From an uncultured Acidobacteriota bacterium (GTDB lineage: Bacteria; Acidobacteriota; Vicinamibacteria; Fen-336): a stretch of 64,000 nucleotides of DNA. Location of the stretch: contig OY970399.1 in the NCBI GenBank assembly GCA_963720545.1, positions 64,001 to 128,000 on the forward strand. The letters run 5' to 3'. Numbering within the stretch: position 1 is the stretch's first letter; every line of letters begins with the position of its first letter. The position numbers were made by a program. Of this stretch, positions 39,001 through 45,000 are shown in pieces.

Positions 39001-42000
39001 TCGCCGTCGCGAAGGCTGGCCTCGGCCGCCGCCATGAGTGCATCGAGTGGCGCAGCGGGCGATTGCGCGGGCCGCGGCGGCGCCGCGGGCGCCTGTGCCG
39101 GTAGCGTAGGCGCCGCGACCAGCAACAGCGCCGCAGCCGGCATCACCAGTTTCACTGCCGCGCCTCGCCGGAACTGGAATTGGCGATACCGAGCGCAACC
39201 GCGGCTTCGCGCTCGCGGCCCGCGTGCTTGAGGATCGCGGCCGATGCGACGATGCTGCGCTTCTCGGACGGGTCGGCGCGCAGCGCGGCGCGCCAGTGCG
39301 CACCCGCGGCATCGAGGTCGCCGGCCTGAGCGTCCATGAGTGCCAGCGAGGTGTGGGCGCGCGCGGCATCGGGACGCAGGGCGAGCGCATCGCGGAACGC
39401 CTTGCGCGCCTGCTGCGTGCGTCCGGCCATCAGCAGGATCGTGCCTTCCTGAACGAGCACGCGCACTGTGGGCGGCTTGCCACCGCCGGCGCGGGTGAGC
39501 GCGGTTGCGGCTTCGTCGAATCGACCCAGCCGCGCGAGTACCAGTGCCTGCGTGAGGAGCACATCCTGGTCGGCTGTCGATGCAGCGGTAAAGGGCTGAA
39601 GTACGCGCAGTGCCCCGGCGGCGTCGCCCAACTGCGCCAGCACCGTGGCGAGGAGCGTCGCGGCGTTGGCGTCGTCACGGCGCAGCGCCAGCGCCGCGCG
39701 CAGGGAGCCTTTCGCCCCGGTGAGGTCGCCGGCTTCCCGCTGCAGGTGAGCGAGGTAGAGATGCGAAACGGCCATCGAGGGCCGCATGCGTACGAGTTGC
39801 TCCGCCGCGACCATCGCGTCGTGCGGCCGTCCCTCCGCCTCCAGCGCCGCGACTTCCTGCAGCCGCGCATCGAGCAACATCAGGTTCTTGGGATCGTCCG
39901 CAGCGGAGTACGGCCTGTCGCTCGCGCCGCCGTTCGCCGAAACGTAGCCGAGCGCACGCAGGCGTTCGGCGTTCTCAGCGGTTTCTGCCGAAGCGCGCGC
40001 GGGCCGTTCTCCACGACGCAGGTCCGCGAGCAGGCGCTGCAGCGGGGCAGCGGCCGCCTTGTCGCCAGCGAGGTTCGTCCGCTCGGCAGAGTCATTGGCG
40101 AGGTCGTACAGCTCCGCGATCGGCAGGTCGACGTACTTCCGGTTGCCGGCGATGACGCCGCGCAACGGCGCCCAGCCGCGGCCGAGGTTTCCCGAGAGAG
40201 CCTCGAAGTAGCACGGTGCGGCCGCCAGCGCCTTGCCCCGAATCGCGGGCAGGAGGCTTCGCCCATCGAGGCCGCCAGGAATTTCGCCGCCGGCAGCCTC
40301 GAGGATGGTGGGAGCGATGTCCACGTGCCGCACGGCGTCTGTCACCACCGCGGGCGGGGCGCCGGCCATGGCAATGACGAGCGGCACGCGCAGCGTCGCT
40401 TCATAAGCGAGGATGCCGTGGGTCGCTTCGGCGTGTTCGCCGAGCGATTCGCCGTGGTCGCCGGTCGCGACCACCAGGGTGGCGCCGCCCGTGCGCCGCG
40501 CGAGAGCGTCGTCGATGAGCGGCGCCACCGCGCTGTCGGCCGCAGCGACGTCGTCCTGGTAGTTGGCATTGACGTACGGGAAGTGCGGCTCGTACACGTG
40601 CACCCACACGAACCAGGGCTGGCCCGCGGGCACCGCCGCGATGAATCGCCGTGCCCGCTCGACGGTCTCGGTTCCGGGTCGCGCCTGCTCCTGCAGGCCG
40701 GTACGCGGCTGGCTGCCGACGAACTCGTCGTCATAGACGTCGAAGCCCCGGTCGAGCCCGAAGCGGGCGGCAACCGGGAAGGCGCTGACGAAGGCACCCG
40801 TGTGGTAGCCGCGCCCCTTCAGCCACGTGGCCAGAGTGTTGGCGGTGGCGGGGAAGCGGAAGCCGCTGTTGTCCCGGACGCCGTGGTGAATCGGCAGCAG
40901 GCCCGAGAGGATGTTGGCGTGGCTTGGCAGGGTCACCACGTTGTGGGCGTGAGCGTTTGCGAACCGGGTGCCGGCCGCCGCCAGCCGGTCGAGGGCGGGC
41001 GTCCGGGCCGCGGCGCCGCGCCGGTAGCAGCCGACCGAGTCGGCGCGCAAGGTGTCGATCGTGATGAGCAAAACGCTGGTCGCCGGGCCTGCCGGCGGCA
41101 CCCGTTTTGCGGGTTCGGACGACCGTCCACAGGCCGGGAACAGCGCCAAGGCGATGACTGGAACGACCAGGATTGTGGCGCTGAGGCGTCTGCGCATGGG
41201 ATCGCGACATGGTACTTCGTGGTCGCTCCCGGTGCGTCACACAAAAGTCTTGACAACCTTGGCGGTTTTCGTCTAAATACACTTTTTAAAGACGTTTAAT
41301 TAACGGCGAGGGGACCATGAGGCGTGGCTCGATTCTTCTGCTGGTTGCGTTCCTGCTCAGTGCGGCGAACGCCATGGCACAACGTTCGACGGCGACGCTG
41401 CGGGGCACGGTCACCGACCCGACCCAGGCGATCGTGGCCGGCGCCAAGGTGGTCATCCTCAACGAAGCCACGGGCTTCACCCGCACCACAGTAACGAACA
41501 ACGACGGCCTCTACACCTTCGCCGACGTGCCCACCGGCTCCTACCGCGTGGACGTCAACCACGCGGGGTTCAAGGCCGAGGTGCGCAGCAAGCTGCAGTT
41601 GAACGTCGCCGACGTCCGGGTGCTGAACGTCCAGCTCACCACCGGCGACGTGGCCGAGGTGGTGAACGTCGATGCCTCGGCGCAGCAGGTCCGCACTGTG
41701 GGCGGTGAGGTGTCGGGCCTCGTCACCGGTGAGCAGGTGCGCCAGCTGCCCCTCAACGGCCGCAACTTCCTGCAGCTCGCCACCCTCATGCCGGGCGTCA
41801 GTTCGCCCGACTTCCTGAACGTCAAGGACAAGGGCCTGCTCGGCGGTTCGGACCTGTCGGTGAGCGGCGGCGGCGTCACCTCGAACATGTGGACGGTGGA
41901 CGGCGCCAACAACAACGACGTCGGCTCGAACCGCACCATCCTTGTTTATCCCTCTCTCGAGGCGATCGAGGAGTTCAAGATCCATCGCAACAGCTACGGC

Positions 42001-45000
42001 GCCGAGTTCGGCGGCGCGTCGGGCGCGCAGATCAACATCGTCACCCGCACCGGCCAGAACGAGTTCCACGGCGACCTGTTCTATTCCGGCCGGCGCGACT
42101 CGCTCAACTCCACCAACTATTTCCTCGAGCAGGCGGGCCAGCCCAAGGAAAACCTGAAGCGCAACGACTTCGGCTGGACCTTCAGCGGTCCGATCATGAA
42201 GGACAAGCTGCATTTCTTCGTGTCGCAGGAGTGGAACCGGGAGCTGCGCGGCAGCGTCCGCACCGCGCAGGTGCCGACGGCGCTCGAGCGCACCGGCGAC
42301 TTCAGTCAGACGGTCGCCGGGGTGTGCGGCGCGAACATTCCCATCGATCCCCTCACCGGCCAGGCTTTCCCAGGTAACGTGATCCCGGCCAACCGGCTGA
42401 GCCCGGGTGGCGCGCTCTACACGCAGCTCTTCCCGCTGCCCAACACCAACCCCGGATCGGGCTGCAACAACTGGGTCGCGTCGCTCGATTCGCCCATCAA
42501 CTGGCGGCAGGAAAACATCCGCCTCGACTGGACCCTGAGCCCCAAGAGCCGAATCATGTTGCGCTACACCCAGGACGCCTGGGTGAACGGCGCGCCCAAC
42601 CTCTACAGCAACCTGTGGGGCGACGACCCGTTCCCGGCGGTCGATTCGAACTGGGACCAGCCCGGCCGCTCGGTCACCGCGCAGTTGACGCAGAACATCG
42701 GCTCGTCGGCGGTGAACACGCTCTCCTTCTCCTACTCGTCCAATAGCATCACGGTGACGCGGGGCGGCGACAATCCGGGGTTGAGCGGGCAGCTGAATGC
42801 GGCGATTCCGTCGCTCTTCCCCGACAGCATCCGCGAGTACGGTGCCGAGCGCGGCCATCCGCTCTTCTGGGGCGGCTTCGGGTACGGCAACAACCTCTGG
42901 AACGAGGCGCCCTTCCGCAACAACCAGGACCTGTTCATCCTGAAGAACGACTATTCGGTGGTGTTCGGCAACCACTTCCTCAAGGTGGGCGCCATCGCCA
43001 GCATGAACAAGAAGAACGAGGACTCGCTGGGGAACGGCTCCAATGAGAGCCCGCAGTTCTGGGGTTCGGCGGGCCTCGCTGGCAACGGCGGCAGCACCGG
43101 CAGCGGCCTCGGCGACCTGTTGCTCCGCGACATGACCTTCGGCTTCTCCGAGTTCTCCAACCAGCGTCCGGTGCCGCAGCGCTGGAAGGATCTCGAGTTC
43201 TACGTCGCCGATTCGTGGAAGCTGAACTCGCGCATGTCTCTCGACCTCGGCGTGCGCTACTCGAACTTCTGGAACGCGTATGCCAACGACGACCGCGCGG
43301 CCTCGTTCGACCCGGCGGCCTACAACCCGGCGCTGGCGGGCGATCCGTGCAACGGCCTGCTGTTCGTTCCCGGCTCCACGTTCTGCCGCGACGGCGGCTT
43401 CGCCGGCGGCACCGATGCACCGAACCGCTCCCTGTACCCGCAGGACCTCAACCTGTTGGCACCGCGTGTCGGCTTCGCCTGGGACGTCAACGGGGACGGC
43501 AAGACCGCGGTCCGCGCCGGCTTCGGGAAGTTCTACCTGCGCGAGCGCCTCAGCCCTGGCCTCAACATCGCCGGCAACCCGCCGTTCAGCTTCCTGCGCA
43601 CCGGCACCCGCTTCCTCGACAGCATCGTCGAGCCGTGCGCCGGCTGCTTCGGCGTCTCGAACGGGCGTGCCACCGCCGGCCGCGAACAGCGTTCGGCGAC
43701 CCCCTACAACTACCAGTGGAACGTCAGCGTCGAACGCGAGATCCTGCCGAACACGGTCTTCGAACTCGGCTATGTCGGCAGCAAGGGCAAGAACCTGCTG
43801 AAGACCCGCGACATCAACCAGGTGGCCGAAGGCGACAGCAACGGCAATGGCATCGGCGACCGCGTCGAGTGGGCGCTGCTCGGCGATGGAGGAGCGGCAG
43901 TGCGGCCGTTCCCGTCGATCGGCGGCCGTATCACGTTCTGGGACCACAGCGGCAGCTCGATCTACCACTCCTTGCAGACGCAGCTGCGCAGCCACTTCGG
44001 CCGCGGCTCGCAGTTGCAGGCGTCCTACACCTGGTCGCGCACGATCGCCAACGAGCCGCTCGACAACTCCGACGGCAACCTGTCGGCGACCGTGACAGTG
44101 CTCGACGACCGCCTCGACCGCGGCCTCGCGCAGACGCACCGCAAGCACATCGCGAACGCGAGCCTGGTGTTGAACCTGCCCCTGCTCGAAGACAAGTCGC
44201 CTCTGGTACGCCACCTCTTCGGCGACTGGCAGGTGGCGACCATCGCCCAGTACGCTTCCGGGCAGGCGCTCACGTTCTTCGCCGGAAGCATTCCGGGGCT
44301 GCAGGGCGGAATCAGCGGCACGGGTTACGTCGACAACCAGCGGCCCAACCGCGTCCCCGGCGTTTCCTGCGCGGCGCCCGCGGGCAGCCCGAAGGAGCAG
44401 ATCATCAACCCGGCCGCCTTCACCATCGTCGGGATGCGGATCGGCGACCTCGGCGACTCCGGCCGCGGCGTTTGCGAAGGCCCCGACTACAAGCAGGTGG
44501 ACTTCTCGCTCTACAAGAACATCCGCCTCAACGCGAAAATCCGCATGCAGCTGCGCTTCGACGTCTTCAACATCTTCAACCGCGTGAACTTCGTGGGTAC
44601 GGGCGGCAACGGCGTGCAAAACGTCATGAGCCCCAGCGACGTCACCTTCGACGCAAACGGTGTCGTCACCAGCGCCACCTCGCAGCCAAGCTTCGGCCAG
44701 GCCCGCCTCACCAAGGATCCGCGCCAGGCGCAGTTCGGGATCAAGCTGAGCTTCTGATGGCGTAACGTCGCCTCCTTGCGGCATTCGACAAGGAGGCGAC
44801 AATGAGAAGCATGCTTGCGGCAGCGGCCGCGCTGGTACTCGGCGCGGCGCTTGCAGCAGCAGACCAGCAGGCGCAACCGATGCCACTGGCAGGCGCACCA
44901 CCCGCGGCGATGCGCGGCGACGTGCTTTACCGCGTCACGCTCCTGCGCGCGGCTCCGGGGCGCCTCCTCGACCTCGTGGACGCGGTGCGCGGCAAATCCC

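Follow-up and report, generated by a model that had tools for sequence, protein, structure and literature searches.

A sulfatase-fold/TPR protein with threonine at the formylglycine position, encoded beside an Oar-type TonB-dependent transporter in an Acidobacteriota genome

A Sulfatase Pfam domain whose site is degenerate or has a threonine nucleophile occurs in LtaS, EptA and YejM. The metal-binding residues of phosphonate monoester hydrolases and of EfAS include a D-H pair (PMC12421950). The Oar protein of Myxococcus xanthus is a TonB-dependent transporter required for secretion of the protease PopC (PMC6434023), and SusD and RagB are described as TPR-based lids (PMC11817032). The window analysed here (64,000 nt from the genome of an uncultured soil member of the Acidobacteriota) contains a sulfatase-fold/TPR fusion gene next to an Oar-type transporter gene, a combination for which our literature search found no paper. 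Our data support the view that enzyme and transporter form a conserved unit.

The divergent gene pair and its surroundings

P0001 (39152-41197, minus strand; 681 aa) is an exported protein that joins a sulfatase fold of the alkaline-phosphatase superfamily to C-terminal TPRs, and P0002 (41317-44757, plus strand; 1146 aa) is an Oar-type TonB-dependent transporter; translations and Pfam matches bear out both genes as first annotated. The genes diverge from a 119-bp spacer (41198..41316) whose A+T content is above that of its flanks, which rules out a P0001-P0002 operon. A sigma-70-like promoter of the Oar gene, TTGACA-N18-TAAATA, is predicted at 41250..41279 (plus strand), and TTGACA-N17-ATAATA was seen by eye at the equivalent place in four other loci (L005, L009, L011 and L021). 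An automated promoter scan found none, because its rule accepts only T as the sixth base of the second hexamer. Between promoter and start codon lies a direct repeat, TTAAA-N5-TTAAT (41286..41300, plus strand), the single match to TTAAR-N4-6-TTAAK genome-wide; TTAAG-N4-5-TTAAG is found at the equivalent place in L005, L009 and L011. The divergent arrangement is retained by the P0001 orthologues in L001, L005, L006, L007, L009, L011 and L021.

The start of the gene for P0124, an exported all-TPR protein (36927..39155, minus strand; 742 aa), overlaps the P0001 stop by 4 bases, and P0124 is syntenic, with 47-54% identity, in L001, L005, L006, L007, L009, L010 and L021. Further along, Pfam identified a protein with FG-GAP repeats and an UnbV_ASPIC domain (34292..36541, minus strand), the start of which is uncertain because conservation begins only at about residue 219. 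It is 70-77% identical and syntenic in seven orthologous loci, and 12 of the 78 related loci described below have it close to a fusion gene. Among the neighbouring genes we found neither a phosphate-regulon theme nor a consistent inner-membrane transporter theme.

P0002 comprises a signal peptide (residues 1-22), a CarboxypepD_reg N-terminal extension (27-108), a TonB-box-like segment A-E-V-V-N-V-D at about 113-120, in which E114 and V118 are near-invariant (alignment A2), a Plug domain (134-235) scoring 23.7 bits, just below the 23.9 cut-off, and an OMP_b-brl_4 barrel (242-1139). A solved relative was not found by sequence. In P0001, Pfam places Sulfatase at 42-303 (6.9e-38), SGSH_C at 263-392, Phosphodiest at 42-116 and several TPR families at 454-644, in agreement with the domain order reported for the example fusion in the first-pass annotation. 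The TPR domain (residues 434-675; 39173..39898, minus strand) opens with D-D-P-K, which is invariant in 26 homologues; in the AF2 model (pLDDT 80.2) its helices, about 13 in number, span 436-674 as a plain run with no inserted lobe. The flexible linker ahead of it carries a conserved short motif, E-R-L-R-A-L-G-Y-V (residues 411-419; 39941..39967, minus strand), of which L-x-A-L-G-Y recurs in 15/15 fusion paralogues and 118/120 homologues. What is linker in the fusions is the extreme C-terminus in TPR-less relatives (12/12 intact TPR-less Thr-type paralogues and 20/28 TPR-less control ORFs).

As read from sequence and paralogue comparison, the N-terminal export signal of P0001 (residues 1-23; 41129..41197, minus strand) ends in a lipobox-like L-F-P-A-C23, made atypical by its Pro at -2. 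Export signals appear throughout the fusion copies. The earlier remark that several fusions start with a lipobox holds for a minority: a lipobox-like Cys can be read from the alignment in 7/15 paralogues, and among 120 close homologues 26 have one, while 76 have a hydrophobic N-terminus without Cys. Such N-termini would be expected of a protein exported to face the periplasm rather than of an obligate surface lipoprotein.

The active site

Residue roles in P0001 were assigned from alignment. The segment T-I-D-T-L-R-A-D (residues 46-53; 41039..41062, minus strand) had been regarded as a Thr-nucleophile signature; it aligns instead with the first beta-strand ("DD") of sulfatases of solved structure and would contribute the metal ligand Asp48. 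D48, T49, R51 and D53 are invariant in the 26 homologues and present in 15/15 paralogues. The candidate nucleophile is the threonine of T89-L-P-S-H93 (40919..40933, minus strand), which phmmer alignments to 7stt and 6pt4 place at the C/S-x-P-x-R formylglycine position. In the same homologues T89 does not vary and H93 reaches at least 90% conservation, and all 14 fusions readable there have T-x-[PV]-x-H; C/S-x-P-x-R is missing from this group. By alignment, threonine takes the place of the modifiable cysteine on which true sulfatases depend. A D-x-x-R strand and then T-x-P-x-H may resemble the NPP nucleophile motif.

A conserved His/Glu cluster, H200-V-Y-E203-P-H205 (40583..40600, minus strand), was recognized by alignment, with H200, E203 and H205 invariant in the 26 homologues and conserved among paralogues. 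The putative metal-ligand motif G-D247-H248-G-E250 (40448..40462, minus strand) is followed by H255, E257 and H260, the last at the Lys position of sulfatases; D247, H248, H255 and H260 are conserved in homologues and paralogues, and the loop 251-267, which includes H255 and H260, is poorly modelled (pLDDT <50 in the AF2 model). In our own reading of the alignment, His replaces two residues that align with sulfate contacts, the C-x-P-x-R Arg and a conserved Lys, and the K-x-H pair aligns with Ala and Pro. These alignments support the exclusion of a formylglycine sulfatase for the P0001-type fusion enzyme.

The TPR-less "sulfatases" of the genome, previously used as a contrast set, do differ from the fusions by the TPR, but not in the type of active site: among 13 intact hits only g01663 has DD...CCPSR...DNG, and the other 12 likewise have Thr at the formylglycine place. 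It is therefore the TPR-bearing clade, not motif loss, that separates Oar-linked from unlinked genes.

Adjacency to Oar genes is conserved and specific to the TPR-bearing clade

In the 4.09-Mb genome, our own gene call and blastp recovered 15 intact fusion genes, distributed over 12 loci, a further copy that is broken, and 32 Oar-like genes, the same totals of fusions and transporters as noted before; the TPR-less hits again number 14, one of them a fragment of the broken fusion. An Oar gene is at most one gene away from 7/15 fusions and at most two genes away from 11/15, as against 1/14 TPR-less hits near an Oar gene; the first-pass counts were 9/15 and 0/14. Counted by locus, 10/12 have an Oar gene within two genes; the random mean is 0.69, and 0/20000 random draws reach 10. 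Some 13 of about 33 Oar genes (~40%) are paired with this one enzyme family, all with the same active site, which would be unusual if each enzyme had its own substrate and points towards a more generic role. Another hydrolase (amidohydrolases, peptidases, beta-lactamase folds, glycoside hydrolases) immediately adjoins 12 of the 20 Oar genes that are not paired with a fusion; "Oar + exported hydrolase" is thus the general layout here.

The 78 related loci stem from Vicinamibacteria, Thermoanaerobaculia, Aminicenantes, Holophagales and one Gemmatimonadaceae MAG. The nearest Oar gene is within 300 bp in 27 of them, where the gap distribution peaks, within 600 bp in 30 and within 3 kb in 43; when only the 51 loci flanked by 3.5 kb or more on either side are counted, it is within 600 bp in 23. 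In the control, an Oar match was found in the 1.5-kb flanks of 1/30 TPR-less relatives (28 genomes). Gene order varies: in 36 pairs with a gap of at most 1500 bp, the Oar gene is upstream on the same strand in 16, divergent in 11, downstream on the same strand in 5 and convergent in 4. Judged by the catalytic domain without the TPRs, the fusions are a single clade (support 84/96), and the association with Oar therefore cannot be credited to "TPR" and "clade" separately. For the 10 paralogous pairs of this genome we found no co-divergence (Mantel r = -0.14, equalled or exceeded in 4183/5000 permutations), nor did paired Oars cluster on the Oar tree (7 changes versus a shuffled mean of 8.8, with 50/500 shuffles as low).

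Possible function and comparison with known systems

The explanation we favour, at a probability of roughly 0.45, is an exported, sometimes lipid-anchored Thr-nucleophile metallo-phosphoesterase that acts on whatever its Oar transporter takes up. Recurring across the phylum, the pairing is probably a nutrient-uptake unit not studied before. The pair would then be a minimal uptake cassette: the transporter would carry a large substrate with phosphoester groups through the outer membrane, and the enzyme, free in the periplasm or lipid- or signal-anchored depending on the copy, would cleave a phosphate mono- or diester via metal-activated Thr89 on a sulfatase scaffold whose sulfate-binding Arg and Lys were turned into His. 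The TPR tail, possibly with the L-x-A-L-G-Y linker motif, may serve as a docking module that keeps the enzyme close to the transporter/Ton machinery or to other partners. We infer phosphoryl rather than sulfuryl chemistry, a periplasmic location, import rather than export, and physical contact; the divergent and convergent pairs count against this reading, as do the missing phosphate-regulon and inner-membrane transporter themes among the neighbours, the absence of co-divergence and of clustering of paired Oars, the single active site shared by so many pairs, and the inseparability of "TPR" and "clade".

The first-pass annotation had proposed SusC/SusD-like units, in which a surface lipoprotein binds via its TPRs, cuts extracellularly and passes the product on to the transporter as a catalytic lid or partner. 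This has the conserved pairing, the lipobox-like Cys of some copies and the TPR-based lids SusD and RagB in its favour, but no SusD Pfam match was obtained for P0001, P0002 reaches 15.5 bits against a cut-off of 368 with the SusC/RagA model, order and strand are variable, paired Oars form no distinct clade and do not co-diverge with their partners, and the TPR region is a plain helical run. With a lipobox in so few paralogues and homologues, an obligate SusD-like surface lipoprotein is unsupported, and we regard the proposal as unlikely. Equally unlikely is the reverse direction of transport, each Oar-type transporter secreting the neighbouring enzyme as Myxococcus Oar does PopC. One dedicated barrel per enzyme would account for the many pairs, and every copy has a signal by which it would reach the periplasm first; however, lipid- and signal-anchored copies would require release, PopC is unrelated to the P0001-type enzyme, PMC6434023 gives no evidence of PopC being encoded beside oar, and the varied hydrolases adjoining unpaired Oars fit import cassettes equally well or better.

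A generic role as envelope-modifying transferase or biogenesis factor (cf. LtaS, EptA, YejM), adding or removing a phospho-headgroup on lipid, LPS or transporter, would suit one family with an unchanged active site beside so many Oars, and the transporter's N-terminal extension has no assigned function according to PMC7782687. YejM (Z 29.6), LtaP (28.8), LtaS (26.0) and EptC (23.9) are close structural neighbours, but P0001 is nearer to S1 sulfatases and phosphonate monoester hydrolases and lacks a multi-span membrane domain, which leaves this role distinctly improbable. Very improbable, in our estimation, is a true sulfatase or promiscuous sulfo/phosphoesterase using Thr for formylglycine in sulfated-polymer uptake: the fold and C-terminal subdomain are nearest to S1 sulfatases and superfamily members are promiscuous (PMC12421950), yet the Arg, Lys and K-x-H positions are all replaced, our literature search found no Thr-nucleophile sulfatase, and the genome, despite its FGE-domain genes, encodes a single C-x-P-x-R protein. 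The mixture of orientations, convergent pairs among them, and the lack of co-divergence would be expected of envelope genes merely co-inherited or co-regulated without shared function; against this, the adjacency is found in several classes of the phylum with differing gene orders, peaks at short gaps and is not seen with TPR-less relatives, and we consider this reading extremely unlikely.

The top structural matches of the P0001 model are S1 formylglycine sulfatases and phosphonate monoester hydrolases (6hr5, 7stt, 1auk ARSA, 2vqr RlPMH, 9koq EfAS), with the same two-subdomain fold (Z 30-36, 334-362 residues aligned, Foldseek E down to 6e-20), a common first metal Asp and, as in phosphonate monoester hydrolases and EfAS, a D-H pair (PMC12421950). 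P0001 differs from them by Thr89 in place of the formylglycine-forming Cys/Ser, by the two His substitutions and by its TPR tail and L-x-A-L-G-Y motif. Thr-nucleophile phosphodiesterases and phosphatases of the NPP/PafA type share the Phosphodiest match to the N-terminal 75 residues (3.6e-10), a region carrying D48 and T89, but are structurally farther (Xac NPP Z 24.1, PafA Z 24.0, ~250-280 residues aligned). LtaS, EptA, MCR-1 and YejM belong to the same Pfam family with Thr at the nucleophile position (Z 21-30); they are lipid transferases with a multi-span membrane domain, whereas P0001 has one N-terminal hydrophobic stretch and the TPR tail. P0002 resembles M. xanthus Oar in its CarboxypepD_reg extension, plug with TonB box and large barrel, a likeness of architecture; the partner of that Oar is a protease. 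With SusC/SusD (RagA/RagB) of Bacteroidota the pair has in common that the gene of a TonB-dependent barrel, extended at its N-terminus by a carboxypeptidase-regulatory-like domain, adjoins that of a helical-repeat protein, in some cases a lipoprotein, and that a genome holds many such paralogous pairs; in contrast, P0001 and P0002 fall outside the SusD and SusC families, the helical-repeat protein is an enzyme, the order of the genes is not fixed, most homologues are without a lipobox and the pairs do not co-diverge.

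An enzyme gene and a divergent Oar gene

The window covers bases 64001-128000 of a single 4.09-Mb contig with a G+C content of about 68%. Its minus strand encodes, at 39152-41197, the enzyme P0001, whose 681-aa translation matches the Pfam families Sulfatase (residues 42-303) and SGSH_C (263-392), a short Phosphodiest segment (42-116) and several TPR families between residues 454 and 644; proteins of this build are called fusions here. The transporter P0002 (1146 aa; 41317-44757, plus strand) consists of a signal peptide, a CarboxypepD_reg extension (27-108), a weak Plug (134-235) and an OMP_b-brl_4 barrel (242-1139), with scores of 9.6e-21 for PF13620, 2.1e-169 for PF25183 and 23.7 bits for Plug against a cut-off of 23.9 (28 bits in a genome-wide search). 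By Pfam, it thus unites the extension, plug and large barrel that define Oar-type TonB-dependent transporters. A candidate TonB box, A-E-V-V-N-V-D, lies ahead of the plug at about residues 113-120, with E114 and V118 nearly invariant among 15 sequences.

A 119-bp spacer lies between the divergently transcribed genes, so that the window pair is no operon; long ORFs on the opposite strands have low-complexity translations and were judged spurious. By eye and by pattern search, the spacer holds a putative Oar promoter, TTGACA-N18-TAAATA, followed by the direct repeat TTAAA-N5-TTAAT (41250-41300, plus strand); a promoter scan of 34000-46000 gave no match. Orthologous spacers share a predicted TTGACA-N17/18-(A)TAATA promoter for Oar and, behind it, a TTAAR-N4-6-TTAAK repeat. 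The genome has a single match to this repeat pattern, 31 bases ahead of the P0002 start; the pattern is kept at the same place in the orthologous loci L005, L009 and L011 and may represent an operator or a leader element.

Six orthologous loci of other genomes (L001, L005, L006, L007, L009 and L021) retain both the divergent Oar gene and the two genes downstream of the enzyme; the Oar gene is also kept in L011, the downstream genes in L010, and the Oar proteins are 56-61% identical to P0002. On the minus strand behind the enzyme lie P0124, an exported all-TPR protein of 742 aa (36927-39155) whose start overlaps the enzyme stop and which is syntenic in seven loci, and an FG-GAP plus UnbV_ASPIC protein (34292-36541). 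No gene of the block is better conserved than the latter (70-77% identity in seven orthologous loci), and in a cross-species scan 12 of 78 loci have it in the vicinity of a fusion gene. Further out, a GH2 protein with an exo-beta-D-glucosaminidase Ig domain (30099-32888, minus strand) is syntenic in two related loci and a ROK-family kinase (33025-34245, plus strand) in five; together they give a weak hint of an amino-sugar substrate. Contigs from soil RNA (two runs of one study, exact or with one mismatch) fall on the Oar gene at 41372-41509, 42147-42343, 42232-42524 and 44253-44414, and none among the matches listed falls on the enzyme gene, an absence of cover that is not informative. These contigs allow no ranking of genes, and RNA libraries may contain DNA.

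Active site and tail of the Thr-type enzymes

The AF2 model of P0001 (pLDDT 80.2, pTM 0.68; poor at residues 251-267 and in the linker 402-427) lies nearest to S1 sulfatases, with Foldseek E-values down to 6e-20 and VIA Z-scores of 30-36 (e.g. 6hr5, Z 36.4, rmsd 2.6 over 334 aligned residues; 7stt, Z 34.1). Other VIA neighbours are YejM (29.6), LtaP (28.8), LtaS (26.0), NPP (24.1), PafA (24.0), EptA (21.7) and MCR-1 (21.6). Structure matches and the Sulfatase and SGSH_C domains agree on a two-subdomain alkaline-phosphatase-like fold with a C-terminal subdomain. The formylglycine motif C/S-x-P-x-R is missing from P0001, which excludes it as an S1 sulfatase. In phmmer alignments to solved sulfatases, the segment VV-T-L-P-S-H-ANILSG falls on the C-x-P-x-R segment, placing T89 at the formylglycine position. 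Of the two basic residues that hold the sulfate, the motif Arg is replaced by His93 and the Lys conserved after the metal pair by His260; G-D247-H248-G-E is kept. The first-pass annotation had taken TIDTLRAD for the nucleophile signature, a reading we had to correct because phmmer puts ITIDTLRAD on the 'DD' metal-ligand strand, with D48 as the first metal Asp and T89 as the candidate nucleophile.

This arrangement is widely kept. A T-L-P-S-H-type motif replaces C/S-x-P-x-R in all 14 readable paralogues, and H200, E203, H205, H255 and E257 are, with the motif residues, conserved in 15 paralogues. The same active-site residues are invariant or nearly so, and T89 strictly invariant, in 26 homologues of about 50% identity. 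Candidate second-metal ligands are the conserved H200, E203, H205, H255 and H260, the last two in the loop 251-267 of low pLDDT. A Thr behind the first metal Asp is consistent with the order seen in Thr phosphoesterases of the NPP/PafA type. Judged by its sequence, P0001 is a sulfatase scaffold with His in place of the sulfate-holding residues and Thr as the predicted nucleophile, which suggests phosphoryl rather than sulfuryl transfer. The D-H metal pair is the form described for phosphonate monoester hydrolases and the Mn-arylsulfatase EfAS, itself dependent on formylglycine (PMC12421950). A weak NCBIfam match to 'manganese-dependent arylsulfatase' was rejected as a model enzyme because that enzyme uses formylglycine C61 (PMC12421950). 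The full-text literature outside subscription journals yielded no Thr-nucleophile enzyme with an S1 sulfatase fold, and nothing on the enzyme-Oar pair.

Between catalytic domain and TPRs, in the low-confidence linker, stands the motif E-x-L-[KR]-[AS]-L-G-Y-[VIL] (residues 411-419; 39941-39967, minus strand). It is present in 15 of 15 fusion paralogues, followed by D-P-[KR] where the TPR helices begin; 118 of the 120 close homologues, and 28 of the 31 paired fusions in other genomes, match the pattern L-x-[ASGT]-L-G-Y. In the TPR-less Thr-type paralogues, the motif forms the extreme C-terminus (last 4-10 residues in 12 of 12 intact proteins), and the true sulfatase g01663 is devoid of it. Of the 28 TPR-less ORFs that are complete in other genomes, 20 likewise end in the motif and four more in A-M-G-Y variants. 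The 'LGY tail', an addition to what the first-pass annotation had described, therefore belongs to the Thr-type clade as a whole, the fusions being the same enzyme with a TPR domain behind the tail. Since a conserved short motif here stands in a flexible segment, it suggests a docking peptide or a sorting signal.

Association of the TPR-bearing clade with Oar genes

Genes were called with a simple codon-usage model (2740 genes) and searched with P0001 and P0002. This independent call confirmed the earlier numbers of 15 fusions, 14 TPR-less relatives and 32 Oar-like transporters. The 15 intact fusion genes occupy 12 loci, and a further copy lies in pieces at 3191431-3193797, one piece being among the 14 TPR-less hits. 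The genome encodes about eight classical TonB-dependent transporters versus some 33 of Oar type. Only one of the 13 intact TPR-less hits, g01663 (2486062-2487717), shows the signature DD...CCPSR...DNG...K; the remaining 12 have Thr at the formylglycine position and D-H-G-E, so that the TPR-less 'sulfatases' are, by these motifs, no sulfatase control. FGE-sulfatase domains are found at three genome loci (2455786, 1146415 and 3300763), as against this one protein with a true sulfatase signature. In a catalytic-domain tree built without the frameshifted g01800 and the fragment g02138, a branch separates the 14 fusions that are intact and free of frameshifts from the 13 other proteins (support 84/96, not starred). 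The TPR fusion thus probably arose once, and as the Oar-linked feature the TPR tail is inseparable from membership of the clade.

An Oar gene lies at most one gene away from 7 of the 15 fusions and at most two genes away from 11. With tandem copies counted once, the latter holds for 10 of 12 loci; random placement gave a mean of 0.69 loci, and none of 20000 draws reached 10. Only one of the 14 TPR-less hits has an Oar gene within two genes. Two more loci, with a frameshifted fusion at 2680075 and with the broken fusion, adjoin split Oar barrels outside our filter, and roughly 13 Oar genes of this genome adjoin a fusion. These two frameshifted or broken loci span 2677485-2682255 and 3191431-3196561, and a split Oar gene (8210-12159 of locus L081) likewise stands beside the intact fusion at 1001891; such cases could reflect joint decay or assembly errors. 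The window itself holds a second Oar gene (60294-63044, minus strand) with no fusion nearby, the unpaired g00090 of our Oar tree.

For a wider view, one genome per species was queried with an alignment of the 26 homologues, and the flanks of the resulting 78 loci were searched with this genome's 32 Oar proteins as queries. The loci derive from Vicinamibacteria, Thermoanaerobaculia, Aminicenantes, Holophagales and unclassified Acidobacteriota MAGs, besides one MAG labelled Gemmatimonadaceae and three labelled Eubacteriales. An Oar-like gene was found within 300 bp at 27 of the loci, within 600 bp at 30, within 1500 bp at 36, within 3 kb at 43 and anywhere in the flank at 54; when only the 51 loci flanked on either side by 3.5 kb or more are counted, 23 have such a gene within 600 bp. 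A second sulfatase-like gene sits in many of the 2-2.7 kb gaps, as at 526599-530389 of this genome. As a control, 61 genomes of the class were queried with a TPR-less Thr-type paralogue; the 30 loci obtained, with 1.5-kb flanks, included none with a TPR tail and one with an Oar match. The link to Oar is therefore real, conserved and specific to the TPR-bearing clade, and the earlier observation of the pairing is sound, in this genome and across the 78 loci, once the nucleophile motif is reassigned.

Pairs are kept through speciation, and deep paralogous pairs are not mirrored between enzyme and Oar. A mirror-tree comparison of 31 pairs gave a Mantel r of 0.30 (reached in 0 of 5000 permutations), with the signal coming from orthologous groups; the 10 paralogous pairs of this genome gave r = -0.14, and nearest neighbours agreed in 11 of the 31. 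On the Oar tree, made by a quick method and with several long branches, the paired label showed no clustering, paired Oars being scattered. Across all 12 fusion loci of this genome, no phosphate or glycan theme emerged from the gene context, which is heterogeneous (amidohydrolases, Ser/Thr kinases at three loci, peptidases, MFS and amino-acid permeases). The three kinase genes, each a few genes at most from a different fusion-Oar locus, lie at L079:15028-17751, L080:12842-14794 and L081:12200-14773; TPR repeats are joined to one of the kinases and a DnaJ domain to another. The lack of a common locus theme and of paralogue mirroring, with the scatter of paired Oars, weakens the idea of a tight co-evolving complex.

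Possible modes of action and known systems

The N-terminus of P0001 has a charged start and, ahead of residue 24, its single hydrophobic stretch (about 15 residues, read from the sequence), ending in L-F-P-A-C23. A lipobox-like Cys was seen by eye in 7 of the 15 paralogues; in the others the hydrophobic N-terminus lacks it. The 120 close homologues divide into 26 with the Cys, 76 with a hydrophobic N-terminus that lacks it and 18, probably mis-started, with no recognisable hydrophobic stretch. The claim that these enzymes are lipoproteins would hence apply to part of the family, and an obligate surface lipoprotein is not in accord with the majority. As a lipid anchor in some close relatives gives way to a simple signal or anchor in others, a periplasm-facing enzyme would be the simplest arrangement.

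Our preferred reading, given a probability of about 45%, is that P0001 is exported and acts as a Thr-nucleophile phosphoesterase in concert with an importing Oar: the barrel would import a substrate, and the exported enzyme would trim the imported material. Among 20 Oar genes inspected outside the fusion pairs, a different hydrolase is encoded right beside 12 (amidohydrolases, M19/M20/M28 peptidases, beta-lactamase folds, glycoside hydrolases, DUF885, Metallophos), so that Oar plus exported hydrolase is the common layout here, one that fits uptake cassettes. For substrate-specific enzymes it would, on the other hand, be odd that a single family with the same active site throughout serves 40% of the Oars, and a generic role in docking, modification or export is for this reason kept as a live alternative. 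The TPR-tailed enzyme might be a standing Oar subunit, whether docked, a catalytic lid or exported cargo, and its TPR tail and L-x-A-L-G-Y motif could dock to the periplasmic N-terminal extension of Oar. A complex prediction for the Oar extension and TonB-box region (P0002 residues 23-140) with the linker and TPR tail (P0001 residues 398-681) scored 0.02 and 0.06 against a mark of 0.32, in runs that had no controls, and speaks neither for nor against contact. We consider a standing subunit improbable; if true, it would be a new kind of transporter-enzyme machine, widespread in soil Acidobacteriota.

Somewhat less probable still is secretion of the partner enzyme by the Oar barrel. Myxococcus Oar, with the same architecture as P0002, exports a protease according to PMC6434023, and the direction of transport by P0002 could therefore be import or export. 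Equally doubtful is the surface lid proposed in the first-pass annotation, with the enzyme seated on the barrel; some copies may be surface-exposed, and most homologues are devoid of the lipobox. Slightly less likely again appears a role in modifying the envelope: transferases of the LtaS/EptA type, which are among the structural neighbours, have an N-terminal multi-span membrane domain, unlike P0001 with its one hydrophobic stretch.

Returning to the phosphoesterase-importer reading, the family concerned is very large, with at least 7579 matches among 8000 scored candidates. A match at E <= 1e-120 was obtained in 62 of the 101 genomes sampled from the phylum, or in 60 of 99 when the unpublished G083 and G106 are set aside. 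In the ESM Atlas, clusters with this architecture come mainly from Acidobacteriota, and DNA nearly identical to the window locus is present in soil and rhizosphere metagenomes. Matches are named 'arylsulfatase A-like enzyme/Flp pilus assembly protein TadD', 'sulfatase-like hydrolase/transferase' or choline-sulfatase, and because pipelines assign such labels, sulfatase counts in soil metagenomes are probably inflated. Acidobacteriota are among the commonest soil bacteria, and we know of no substrates for their many Oar-type transporters; once the real chemistry and the cargo of the paired transporters are known, the route by which these bacteria obtain organic phosphorus or other polymer-bound nutrients would become clear.

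The comparison with SusC/SusD, drawn earlier for this pair, holds as an analogy only. P0001 has no SusD_RagB or SusD-like domain among 16 Pfam matches (E up to 0.01), and P0002 reaches 15.5 bits against the SusC/RagA model TIGR04056 (cut-off 368.25), in a match confined to the N-terminal extension. SusD/RagB is a lipoprotein encoded directly downstream of the barrel gene, whereas the window pair is divergent, the 36 close pairs are of mixed orientation (Oar shares the strand of the enzyme in 16 pairs where it is upstream and 5 where it is downstream; 11 pairs are divergent and 4 convergent), and a lipobox Cys is found in just 26 of the 120 homologues. What Oar and SusC do have in common is the carboxypeptidase-regulatory-like extension, which is not known to have a partner and has no established role even in SusC; its deletion abolishes growth in Bacteroides (PMC7782687). 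Knowledge of the chemistry and cargo of the enzyme-Oar pairs could also clarify this extension, shared by both kinds of transporter.
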